Part shown: positions 28,511 to 44,131 of the stretch, piece by piece
Numbering within the stretch: position 1 is the stretch's first letter
Layout of the letters: each line of letters starts with the position of its first letter
Assembly (NCBI RefSeq): GCF_963506605.1
Contig: NC_083282.1
Coordinates: 37,138,001 to 37,202,000 of the forward strand
Direction: 5' to 3'
DNA length: 64,000 nt
From: Zootoca vivipara
Lineage: Eukaryota
Program-made: the position numbers and the translations under genes
The notes under the pieces: model-generated
Databases searched by the model: none
Told to the model about the DNA's origin: nothing
Seen by the model: only the letters and a program-made list of their open reading frames with translations

Positions 28511-30415
28511 AAAATATACATTTAAAAGGTGGAAAATTCTGTTCTAGTTCCTGATCAATAGAAAATGTCTACAGAAAATCACCCCCCCCCCTGTTTCTTT
28601 CCTTGTTTCTTTCCTTGTAATTGCCTATTCAACTCTTCTTCATGTGCTCCCTCCATCCCCAGATCTGGCTGGCTCATTATGAATTTTATTCCAATATGCA
28701 GGTATTCTAGAAAACTTAGAAATTCTGTTTCATAACTAGGTGGGCTAGAAGAAGAGACCAACTCTTCACTCAGTCAAATGACTCCAATTGATTTGTCAAT
28801 ACAGTTATAATGCTGTTCTTACTATAACACTATTCTTATATTATTTTCTATGCACCATATAGCTATCTTATACCACTTTATGTGCCTGTTTTGCTTCAAA
28901 GGTCATAATATATTCCATGTGAAGGTAATAACATGTGTACTGCATTACATCGATGGATTTGTTTCAGTTACAGCCTGGAGTCTGTGCTCTTTAATCACTG
29001 GTTATACTTTACTCCCTGAACCACTGGGTTCCTAATCTGGAAATGTGAACCTGTATTCAATCACCAAATCTAACACAAGTGAGCATGAGACATTGTCCAT
29101 GGGGTGGTTGAATGTGTAGGGGACAAAATAATAGGTAGTGGGAGCTCAGGTAACATGAGGAAAGGCTTGGGTATAGATAAAGCTTGGAATCTAAATAATT
29201 GCACAGTTATTTATACAGGGTGAGGATTTTCATATTCTGCCCCCATCCATGTATCTCCATTTCCCTCTACAGTCCCACAAGAAACATCCGTTTTCTGGAA
29301 GCAATGCGATGTTACAGCACCGTCAGGTTAATGAGAAGGGAGGATTTGAACGCCATATGGTAGCAAGCAAGAGCAACTGACAGTTGTTAAATGTGCTGAG
29401 TGCCTGACAAGCCTGAAATTACACCCAACAAGCTCCCAACATCCTTGCATCCATTTTGAGAGGAGGTCCAGTACGTTTTTGACTTCTGTTTCTAAAGCAG
29501 CAAGAGGCAGCTCCCGAAAGCCCACAGAAAGCCGTGATTTCTATCCCAAATATCAAACGAAAGTTGGTCACAATGAATATCTCTGTGCCTTTGACGGCTT
29601 AATTTCTAGGACATCTCTGTCAGATTCCATTCAGCTCTCTGCCTGCCAGTCTGATCCTCCTGCGATTCCTCCAAATCACTCTCTCCTACTCATGTTGTAG
29701 CCTGTTTGCCCCATTATCGGGTAGTTGCTGCGAACAATGTAGCGCTTAGGTGGCCTCTACCCTCCTCAAACACTTCCTCCCCCACTGTCTTCTGCATTTG
29801 GTTTAAAGCTTGAGGTAATTAAATTTCTCTCTTTCCCCCCCTCTAGCAACATTGATCTATATTGGATATTTAGACTCCAGAGAATCAAAGCTCTTTATTC
29901 TTGCCTGGAATATGTTGCCCTCAGATTTATTCCCTACGTGCATGGAATAAATGAGGAAGGACTAATGTACTGGAGTCATAGCAGCAAGATTTGTTAACCA
30001 CAAGATGGCAGTTTGACTGCCTTGGCTAGACTTTTGTAATTGATGCATGGAAGCAGCCTCAGATTTTAGCCTGGCTTTGGCAGAGGATCCTGAGCATCTT
30101 CCTTTGGGGCTTTTAAATGGTTTTAAAAGTGAGACTTGGCTCTCAGTATTAAGGCTGCCATGTTTTAAACAGGAGGCTTGTTGGGGAATGCATTGTATGG
30201 GACATAGCATATTTCTGATGGCCTCTATATTTCTGGGAACTTTTCATATTTGCTCTTGCTTCATCAACTCCTCATAAGGAAGCTGTGCCTGGAGGAAGAA
30301 CTGGGAGGGGAGAGACTTTGTCAGGCAAGGCCTCCTTCCACCTGCCTTGCTCCACCCTCTAGTCTCTGCTTATCAATTTGTATTGTACTGTGGCTTGTCG
30401 TCGTTTTATTGATTA

Positions 30416-31637
30416 CTAGTGGATTTTAGCCCGTTTAAAAACGGGCGCTAGAGGAAGCGGCCTGCCGGGACTGGCTTGGCGGTGGCGGGTCTTCCCGCCA
30501 CCACCAAGCCAGTTCGCAGCGGGGGCTTTTCGCCGTTTGCCTTCCCCTGAGGGGGAGGCAAACGGCGAAAAACCCCGCCGCGCCGCAATTCGGCTCCGGG
30601 ACTGGCTTGGCGGTGGCGGGTCTTCCCGCCACCGCCAAGCCAGTCCGCAGCGGGGGCTTTTCGCCGTTTGCCTTCCCCTGGGGGAGGCAAACAGCGAAAA
30701 ACCCCGCCGCGCCGCAATTCGGCTCCGGGACTGGCTTGGCGGTGGCGGGTCTTCCCGCCACCGCCAAGCCAGTCCGCAGCGGGGGCTTTTCGCCGTTTGC
30801 CTTCCCTCGAGGGGGAGGCAAACGGCGAAAAACCCCGCCGCGCCGCAATTCGGCTCCGGGACTGGCTTGGCGGTGGCGGGTCTTCCCGCCACCGCCAAGC
30901 CAGTCCGCAGTGGGGTTTTTTCGCCGTTTGCCTTCCCCTGGGGGAGGCAAACGGCGAAAAACCCCGCCGCGCCGCAAATCGGCTCCGGGACTGGCTTGGC
31001 GGTGGCGGGTCTTCCCGCCACCGCCAAGCCAGTCCGCAGCGGGGGGTTTTCGCCGTTTGCCTTCCCCTGGGGGAGGCAAACAGCGAAAAACCCCGCCGCG
31101 CCGCAATTCGGCTCCGGGACTGGCTTGGCGGTGGCGGGATGTTCCCGCCACCGCCAAGCCAGTCCGCAGCGGGGGCTTTTCGCCGTTTGCCTTCCCCTGG
31201 GGGAGGCAAACGGCGAAAAACCCCGCCGCGCCGCAATTCGGCTCCGGGACTGGCTTGGCGGCGGCGGGAAAAAGGGGAGGAATTCCTCCCCTTCTTCCCG
31301 CCGCTGCCAAGCCAAAGCGGGCCTCCCTCCGTGCCCGCTGCCGCTTCGGCTTCCTCGGGTTCCCCGAGGAAGCGCCGTCCCATGCCGGAGGTGTGCGGCA
31401 AGGCTGCCGGGGGGGGGAGCGCTTCTCTCCCCCGCCGCCTCACCGCGCACCTCCAGCATGAGACTGGGCTTCGGAGCGGCGGTTGGCTGTTCCCTGTGTC
31501 CCGAGAGCACGGGTCCAATCCCTGTGTCCCTGGTTGTCCCTCCGTCCAATCCCTGTGTCTCTGGGGGACATGCGCAGTACCCCAGGGACACACGGGACAT
31601 CTGGACGCAGGGACAACATGGACATTATTATATAGGA
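30416..31637 (-). mobile_element. Non-autonomous Helitron (rolling-circle transposon)
   Basis: Minus strand starts TCCTATATAATAA and ends GCCCGTTT-TT-AAACGGGC hairpin + 9 nt + CTAG; inserted between A and T; no TSD. Confidence 0.88.
30465..31313. repeat. GC-rich minisatellite, six full 129-131-bp units plus a partial unit, inside the Helitron
   Basis: Units start at 30465, 30596, 30725, 30856, 30985, 31114 and 31244; each contains two inverted repeats. Confidence 0.95.
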
Positions 31638-32028
31638 TAGTTTAGAAATTATTTATTGTAACTTGAGGGGATTTCTATTTAACTTTTATATGTTTATATT
31701 CTTATTTTATACTACTCTAATAATTGTTGAATGTTACTTTTTGATGTAGGTTGCTTATTTTAAAGTTTTGTTTTATTATCACATTTTTGTATTGCATTAG
31801 ACTGTTATAAGATGTACATTTTTGTTTCTTCAGCTTGTAAACCGCCTTGAGTATTGTAAGATAGAAAGACGGTATATAAAAAAAGGATCAACTGTGAAAT
31901 GTCTGTAGGTGATCTGTTCTTTGCAGAATTGCACCTGCCATTTAATAGAAGATCAGGAACACAAAATAACTGCCTTGGATTCACATATGTCAAGAGATCT
32001 AATAATAACAGTAGGGTTATTCTAAGTA

Positions 32029-32256
32029 CAGTGGTACCTCTACTTGTGAATTTAATGCGTTCCGAACGCACATTCATAAGTCGAAAAAAATTGTAAGTCG
32101 AATCCCATAGGAATGCATTGGGAGAAAAAAATTCGTAAGTAGAAGCAACCCTACCTAAAAATTCGTAACTAGAAAAAATCCTATCTAAACCGCATCCAAG
32201 ATGGCGGACGGAGCTCCATTCGTAAGTAGAAACATTCGTAAGTAGAGGTACCACTG
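32029..32256. mobile_element. Tc1/mariner (Tigger-like) MITE
   Basis: TIRs CAGTGGTACCTCTACTT / AAGTAGAGGTACCACTG; TA TSD. Confidence 0.88.
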
Positions 32257-40787: not shown

Positions 40788-41214
40788 CAGTGGAACCTCG
40801 GTTTACGAACACCTCGGTTTACGAATTTTCAGTTTACGAACGCCGCAGACCCATCAGGAACGGATTAATTCACTTTCCATTACTTTCAATGGGAAAGTTT
40901 GCTTCAGTTTATGAACGCTTCAGTTTATGAACAGACTTCTGGAACCAATTACACCCATGCTTCGGGTTAAGTACGCTTCAGGTTGAGTACTCCGCGGACC
41001 GGTCTGGAATGGATTAATCCACTTTCCATTACTTTCAATGGGAAAGTTCGCTTCAGTTTATGAACGCTTCAGTTTAAGTACTCTGCGGACCGTCTGGAAC
41101 AGATTAATCCACTTTCCATTACTTTCAATGGGAAAGTTCGCTTCAGTTTATGAACGCTTCAGTTTATGAACAGACTTCCGGAACCAATTATGTTCATAAA
41201 CTGAGGTACCACTG
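40788..41214. mobile_element. Tc1/mariner MITE with three internal repeat copies
   Basis: TIRs CAGTGGAACCTCGGTTTA / TAAACTGAGGTACCACTG; TA TSD. Confidence 0.88.
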
Positions 41215-42621: not shown

Positions 42622-43918
42622 TCATGTATAATGAGATAAGAATCCGATATCTCTGTTCAAACCAGGTCCCTCCATGGTTTTGAGCTTGGTGATAAGTTGC
42701 AATTCAGCAACTTCTCTTTCCAGTCTATTTCTGAAATTCTTTTGTAGTAAGACAGCTACTTTGAGATCTTGTATAGAATGTCCTGGGAGATTGAAGTGTT
42801 CTCCTACTGGTTTTTCTGTCTTCTGGTTCCTGATGTCAGATTTATGTCCATTTATCCTTTGGCGTAGGGTTTGGCCTGTTTGTCCAATATAGAGAGCTGA
42901 AGGGCACTGTTGGCATTTGATGGCATACACAATGTTAGAGGATGAGCAATTAAATAGTCCTGAGATGGTATGTTGGATGTTGTTGGGGCCAGTAATGGTG
43001 TTGTCTGGGTGTATGTGGCAGCAAAGTTGGCATCTGGGTTTATTGCAGGCTCTGGTACCAGTGTCCATGTTAAGTCTGGTGGTTGTATTATTGTGGGTGA
43101 GGAGTTGTTTAAGATTGGGTGGCTGTCTGTAGGCAATGAAAGGTCTTCCTCCCAGAGCTTGAGAAAGGGAGCTGTCATTGTCCAGGAGAGGCTGTAGATC
43201 TCTGATGAAGCGTTGTACTGTTTTAGCTTGGGAGCTGTATGTGATGACTAGTGGTGTTCTGTTATTTTCTTTTTTGGGTCTGTCTTGCAGCAGGTTCTCT
43301 CTAGGTATCTGTCTGGCTCTGTTGATCTGTTGTTTAACTTCATCAGGTGGATATTTTAGTTCTAAAAAGGTTTGCTGTAGATCTCTTAGGTGAGATTCTC
43401 TGTCTGTAGAGTTGGAACAGATGCGGTTGTAACGTAAGGCCTGGCTGTATACGATGGATTGTTTGGTATGTTTGGGATGGTAGCTAGAAGCATGTAGATA
43501 TGTTTGTCGGTCAGTTGGTTTTCTGTATAAGGTGGTGTCTATATGTCCATCCTGTATTTTTATAGTAGTGTCCAAAAAATGTATTTCTTGCATAGATTGG
43601 TTCATTGTTAGGTTGGTGGTGGGGTGAAAGTCATTGAATGTCTGGTGGAAGGTTTCCAGGGTCTGTTGTCCATGTGTCCAGATAATAAAAATATCGTCAA
43701 TGTATCGCAGGTACAGGAGAGGTTTGAGTGGGTAGGAGTTAAGGAAACGTTGTTCTAAATCTGCCATGAAGATGTTGGCATACTGTGGGGCCATGCGGGT
43801 GCCCATGGCTGTGCCGCTGATCTGGAGGAACAGGTCATCACCAAATTTGAAGTGGTTGTGGGTAAGGACAAAGTGGCAGAGTTTGGTAGCAAAGTCCGCT
43901 GTGGTTTTATCTGAAATG
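42622..43918 (-). CDS. PLE reverse transcriptase C-terminal half + GIY-YIG endonuclease (N-terminally truncated, no internal stops)
   Basis: GTAMGTRMAPQYANIFM, YLRYIDDIF, FLD, YRKPT, CNKPRCQLC linker, IVYAIKC...YIGQTGQTLRQRINGH, GLN. Confidence 0.9.
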
Positions 43919-44131
43919 GTGTGGAAAGCCAAGGAGGGTAGCTACTCAGCACCCAAGATCAATGCAGTCATTGGTTTTGCTTTTAAGGGGAATACTTCAT
44001 TTTACCATTCAATAAAATGCTTCTCTATTTGTTTATTAAAAGGAACACTCACTCACTCACTCACTCACTCAGACAGAGACATATATATCTGGGCACCTGG
44101 AAAGGCTGCAGAGTGCAGACCGCTAGAGATA

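Follow-up and report, generated by a model that had tools for sequence, protein, structure and literature searches.

The window examined here, 64,000 nucleotides of the common lizard Zootoca vivipara, contains on its minus strand a very young, gene-less rolling-circle transposon that has more than 100 near-identical copies in the genome and is a member or close satellite of the published Heli1Xen1-a family. We are highly confident in reading it as a very young non-autonomous Helitron, filled by a variable minisatellite of hairpin-forming 129-bp units, which probably moves in trans with the help of the intact Heli1Xen1-a RepHel elements of this genome. Given that the family, its transfer between frog and lizard and an age below 1 My have been published (PMC12001565), the headline is already known and the element itself is ordinary. 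The parts worth following are the rule that appears to govern the choice of targets and the naturally intact transposase.

Anatomy of the element and its insertion site

The element and the host sequence that it interrupts comprise the following features (window coordinates):

30416..31637, minus strand: entire non-autonomous Helitron of 1,222 bp, identified by both termini, its copies and its composition
31503..31637, minus strand: left terminal sequence beginning with TC; first 57/57 nt the same as in the intact autonomous copies, 128/135 overall
31269..31502, minus strand: GC-rich, non-repeated head, common to the subfamily and without a match in the autonomous element
30465..31268, minus strand: minisatellite of 6.2 units of 129-131 bp with 96% matches, from tandem-repeat and folding analysis
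30429..30446, minus strand: subterminal hairpin (8-bp inverted repeat), a putative terminator by analogy to Helraiser (PMC4778049)
30416..30419, minus strand: 3' CTAG terminus, then host T at 30415, from the sequence and fetched copies
30404..30415, minus strand: target flank of the host beyond the 3' end, T-AATCA-ATAA, built like the start of the element itself, T-CCTAT-ATAA
30270..31886, plus strand: older retroposon-like host repeat of ~400 bp with an A-rich tail, split by the Helitron and flanked by a 7-bp duplication (30263-30269 and 31887-31893)

Read on the minus strand, the element opens with TC at 31637-31636, directly after a host A at 31638, and closes with CTAG at 30419-30416, directly before a host T at 30415. 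Helitron1 elements are recognised by a 3' CTRR with a hairpin of 16-20 nt some 10-15 nt upstream, and here an 18-nt subterminal inverted repeat (8 bp + 2 nt, 30429-30446) stands 9 nt ahead of CTAG. The fold predicted for it, a 7-bp stem with a 4-nt loop, is not unusual alone (z -1.4), so that its weight comes from its conservation across copies; by analogy with Helraiser, rolling-circle synthesis would terminate there. Elements of the Helentron or Helitron2 type (DINE-1-like) insert into TT rather than AT; in our sample, A|T was the site in all 25 complete copies.

The insertion could be examined against several empty sites. Among the host-repeat paralogues (the best 19 of 39 other matches of this repeat), all 19 were collinear across the junction and 17 had no mismatch there. 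Three contigs from a sequencing run of another organism (X13) join over exactly 1,222 bp, while the orthologous X13 contig links 30262 to 31887 and lacks the host repeat. Taken together, these empty paralogues and joins indicate that the host repeat came first and the Helitron afterwards, and that the Helitron inserted at A|T without target-site duplication and without loss of target sequence. Contigs of three further runs (X1, X5 and X7) end inside the surrounding repeat at this locus. The X13 contigs left most of the element (at 85% likeness) and the RepHel ORF (at 90%) uncovered, and such contigs show presence, not absence. Two other mobile sequences were seen in the window. The first, at 32029-32256, is present in many copies, measures 228 bp, and has terminal inverted repeats and TA flanks; the X13 contig skips it, and we take it to be a Tc1/mariner-type MITE. 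The second, at 42622-43941 on the minus strand, is a frame of 439 aa that gives weak matches to RVT_1 and GIY-YIG, a fragment of a Penelope-like retroelement.

With a GC content of 0.68 and a CpG observed/expected ratio of 0.92 (0.31 in the remaining window), and with six open frames of 334-406 aa, the element could be mistaken for a protein-coding gene, a CpG island or a dispersed satellite lacking any transposon frame. We give such readings a negligible probability. The minisatellite accounts for 804 of the 1,222 bp, i.e., two-thirds of the element, and holds a single stop triplet with both strands counted together; a 129-bp repeat that is nearly free of stop triplets leaves both strands open, and the long frames are thus artefacts. 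A Pfam scan of two of them gave nothing above the cut-off. In the 47 complete copies, moreover, the repeat is bounded by sharp Helitron ends, and empty sites exist. The protein-coding reading was accordingly rejected on the stop-poor repeat, the Pfam result, the shared termini and the empty sites. One 129-bp unit folds as two long hairpins (z -11.4). Elsewhere in the window, at 40795-41171, tandem repeats of 16 bp and 90 bp are clustered, probably within another MITE.

The initial annotation, made from the letters of the window, had anticipated much of this anatomy. Its TC and CTAG ends are shared by 25/25 complete copies, its 8-bp GC hairpin 9 nt ahead of CTAG lies at 30429-30446, its A|T target without duplication agrees with the 19/19 collinear paralogues, and the empty site that it proposed looking for does rejoin at A|T, both in the host-repeat paralogues and in the X13 contigs. 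It was also right that the open-reading-frame track misreads the element as several proteins; both the 129-bp tandem array and the host repeat were overlooked.

Copies, age and the probable autonomous partner

A genome-wide search with the termini, as had been suggested, found 141 perfect copies of the terminal 31 nt at the 3' end and none of a reversed control. All 30 loci retrieved with the 5' end begin A|TC; 25 of them hold both ends, every one reading A|TC...CTAG|T, and the remaining five extended beyond the fetched stretch. Across the larger collection, 55/55 distinct 3' flanks open with T and 60/60 non-tandem 5' flanks close with A. A degenerate 5' pattern occurred 677 times and sister-type 3' ends a further 580 times, from which it follows that the element represents one subfamily among several.

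The 47 complete copies, which are those short enough for the fetched loci, range from 716 to 1,498 bp and carry two to eight full minisatellite units, with copy length following unit number (~127 bp per unit, r 0.94); slippage or template switching at the hairpins may have altered the number of units. Their heads diverge from the majority sequence by a median of 0.25% and a mean of 0.55% in a sample skewed to young copies by the choice of exact end matches; 13/47 heads are identical to the majority, as are 117 of 1,081 head pairs to each other. CpG sites in the heads are mutated about twice as often as other sites. The youth that had been deduced from abundant CpGs is thus borne out by the divergence of the heads.

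A search of the genome with Pfam PF14214 gave 24 matches, eight of them of identical score within a long open frame. These belong to eight autonomous elements of 6.58-6.65 kb in A|T, one of them a composite, with an intact 1,648-aa RepHel ORF in each. The protein has its Rep domain at residues 564-745 and a Pif1 helicase at 1186-1392, with HUH, Y2 and helicase motifs intact, and its best PDB match is Helraiser 7LCC (1,749 bits, residues 158-1648). The eight ORFs differ at 0-6 positions in 4,977 nt (0.05%), corresponding to ~0.1 My at the rate of Li and Pollet, and six of the seven differences among them (L076:2705-7651 and seven sisters) are non-synonymous, which is what neutral drift would give after copying in the very recent past. 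The RepHel ORF gained very little coverage from three RNA runs, 6% of each being analysed and no tissue given, in which reads did fall on the multi-copy termini. A search across sequencing runs listed no RNA run among its holders, which carries no information on expression.

The autonomous Rep-Hel partner with the same end that the initial annotation had advised seeking therefore exists in eight intact copies, and at the 5' end the likeness is complete over the first 57/57 nt (128/135 in all). At the 3' end, 24/31 nt agree (77%), or 31/39 (79.5%) over a longer stretch, against a usual family rule of 80%, and the interior of the element shows no derivation from the autonomous one. As the 3' match is weak and the interior unrelated, the partnership with the RepHel copies is likely rather than proven, and the element may descend from a sister lineage of slightly greater age. 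As to the donor of the internal head, only copies of the family were returned among the best 40 of 573 candidates.

This bears on a different account, namely that an older sister master, broken by now, both made and amplified the subfamily, and that the eight intact copies came in or spread later and are not its movers. Such a history would suit the 3' end, which resembles that of the intact copies at only 77-80%, and the 580 further sister-type 3' ends; there are also broken autonomous copies that share 94-98% identity with the intact ones, one of which (L084) has a 5' end slightly closer to the element (95.6% vs 94.8%), and the heads diverge more than the intact ORFs do (0.25% median and 0.55% mean vs 0.05%). 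We nevertheless judge it improbable: with 13/47 heads equal to the majority and 117/1,081 pairs identical, the subfamily and the intact copies overlap in age, there is no difference from the intact autonomous element in the first 57 nt, and Helraiser transposition continues at a reduced level even without its right end (PMC4778049).

We thus favour mobilisation of the element in trans by the lizard RepHel copies, along a route that can be sketched by analogy with Helraiser (PMC4778049). At the 5' TC, RepHel would nick the plus strand, which the helicase would then peel away while the donor is resynthesised; the hairpin would halt synthesis at CTAG, and the peeled strand or its circle would be joined between a host A and T.

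Several loci show further arrangements of autonomous copies. Upstream of its ORF, the autonomous element carries an unrelated minisatellite of its own (83 bp x 3.6, L076:1576-1873). At L081, a sister non-autonomous element adjoins a 5'-clipped intact autonomous copy to form a 7.9-kb composite, and at L083 an autonomous copy bears a sister-type 5' end; together they suggest that 5' ends have been swapped between elements. At L076/L077/L168 (G000:C1:43.68-43.70 Mb), two inverted intact autonomous copies have a common 1.1-kb 3' flank, and one of the two faces a non-autonomous 5' end, head-to-head, across 84 bp. The inverted pair L076/L077 may reflect either transduction or inverted duplication; in a search for 3' transduction or inversion, the continuation seen in organism B (the source of X13) was absent from the seven loci searched.

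Family membership and related Helitrons

The lizard RepHel is 92% identical over 1,401 aa to Xenopus laevis LOC108706566, which Li and Pollet (2025) name as Heli1Xen1, an intact X. laevis copy of 1,401 aa (PMC12001565). The database lists the RepHel protein under Zootoca vivipara, and its 90% cluster includes LOC108706566. In a tree built by a quick method from 25 hand-picked proteins, Helraiser left out, the two are sisters (SH-aLRT 100) and the cordylid and gecko proteins fall outside. A bat origin was considered and rejected, the nearest proteins being those of Xenopus, then Hemicordylus, Polypterus and Erpetoichthys; on the initially proposed likeness to the 5' end of Helibat/Helraiser, a full-text search turned up nothing relevant.

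Published work already places Zootoca vivipara in Heli1Xen1 group a, with a Ks of 0.003, an age of ~0.58 My and horizontal transfer, and describes ends with TC and CTAG, a TATATAA-like start and a CCCGTT..AACGGG hairpin (PMC12001565). The RepHel members of group a are about 95% identical at the nucleotide level (PMC12001565); our comparison, made at the protein level, gave the 92% over 1,401 aa mentioned above, and the lizard transposase belongs to the same lineage as the intact X. laevis copy. Assignment to Heli1Xen1-a by >80% 3' identity is less clear-cut for the non-autonomous element, with 77% over 31 nt and 79.5% over 39 nt, next to 100% over 57 nt at the 5' end. In the text of PMC12001565 available to us, there is no mention of this subfamily, the 129-bp minisatellite, the eight intact lizard ORFs or the target motif, and in those of its supplementary tables that were searched, Zootoca appears as a species entry only.

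The possibility of horizontal acquisition, raised in the initial annotation, is therefore well founded in the Xenopus sister RepHel and the published transfer (PMC12001565). Two of its other expectations fared worse: likeness had been sought among bat and insect Helitrons, and the nearest relative proved to be a Xenopus Helitron; Helitrons had been held to be rare in amniotes, yet young lizard Helitrons are no surprise (PMC3014272, PMC2997563). Helitron-1_AC, Helitron-2_AC and HeligloriaB of Anolis are likewise young and horizontally acquired, and as in Zootoca there are few autonomous and many non-autonomous copies of 1-2 kb (PMC3014272, PMC2997563). However, the non-autonomous families of Anolis are described as internal deletions of their master, whereas the Zootoca element has only its ends in common with its own.

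With Helraiser and Helibat1 of Myotis, the element shares TC, hairpin, CTAG, A|T and the absence of target-site duplication (PMC4778049, PMC5876387), and the similarity to Helraiser extends to RepHel architecture, non-autonomous partners and head-to-tail junctions (PMC4778049, PMC5876387; PDB 7LCC). Helraiser, however, is a reconstruction (PMC4778049), whereas the lizard ORFs are naturally intact, and it is not the nearest relative. DINE-1, HINE and Heli2Xen also have a central tandem array of variable number between fixed ends (PMC12001565), and the lizard element differs from these minisatellite carriers in its canonical Helitron1 ends and A|T target. In the Xenopus study, minisatellites were mainly linked to the other family, Heli2Xen (166 bp; PMC12001565).

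Target choice and 5'-end mimicry

The downstream target flanks are strongly biased towards T-N4-7-ATAA, a pattern that mimics the element's own start, T-CCTAT-ATAA. The motif was present in 53/78 flanks against 8.4 expected at matched AT content. Among the distinct 3' flanks of the element's subfamily, it was found in 34/52, where AT-matched A|T sites in the window predict 5.7. The motif was defined after inspection of this first set; in an independent set, made up of sister subfamilies and the autonomous element, it was found in 19/26 (2.7 expected). Flanks that are themselves Helitron 5' ends (3 distinct sequences, 5 loci) were excluded from these counts. Shuffling within flanks gave a maximum of 16/51 against the 34 observed, and the mirrored upstream flank, used as a control, carried the motif in 4/60.

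It could be argued that all the transposase requires 3' of the nick is AT-rich DNA that melts readily, and that nothing resembling the 5' end is recognised. Helraiser insertions are AT-rich within ~20 bp, mostly on the 3' side, and the target preference is described only in those terms (PMC4778049); the start of our motif, moreover, shifts over about four positions. Still, this explanation is rather unlikely in our view, as matched AT content and shuffled flanks both yield far fewer motifs than were seen, and G or C is allowed at flank positions +2 to +5 but almost never at +7 to +10. One copy, in addition, sits exactly at the 5' end of a resident Helitron. It lies in a tandem array (L169/L170, G000:C1:47.634-47.654 Mb) of at least 4 units of 4.31 kb, 99.7% identical, each consisting of a ~2.07-kb sister Helitron and flank. 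One unit carries a copy of the query subfamily precisely at the resident's 5' A|T, and the sibling units are empty, which shows that the copy inserted at a 5' end and did not arise by concatemer formation.

Recognition of 5'-end-like targets thus appears to fit the flanks better. The transposase would apply to its target the preference with which it reads its own 5' end, and copies would as a result stack at existing Helitron 5' ends. Head-to-tail junctions are seen in the genomic sequence. In the parts of the Helitron literature searched (PMC4778049, PMC5876387, PMC13286980, PMC10288648), no statement on such a motif or mimicry was found, and Kosek et al. 2021, on the Helraiser structure, may already treat it. 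At another locus (L171, G000:C2:28.7645-28.7715 Mb), a copy of the subfamily and its 3' flank form an inverted duplication and a 523-bp 5' flank is directly duplicated, a Helitron-linked rearrangement.

The eight intact, near-identical RepHel copies provide a natural vertebrate Helitron that can be put to the test without reconstruction, and the 5'-end-like motif provides a specific rule, itself open to testing, on how Helitrons choose their targets and how mixed head-to-tail stacks arise. More tentatively, and at somewhat less than even probability, the lizard may host a naturally intact, still-transposing vertebrate Helitron whose transposase picks mimics of its own 5' end (A|T-N5/6-ATAA). 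If so, integration would amount to left-end cleavage run backwards at a site that resembles this end, and targeted insertion, rather than rolling-circle run-on, would be the source of many head-to-tail Helitron arrays.
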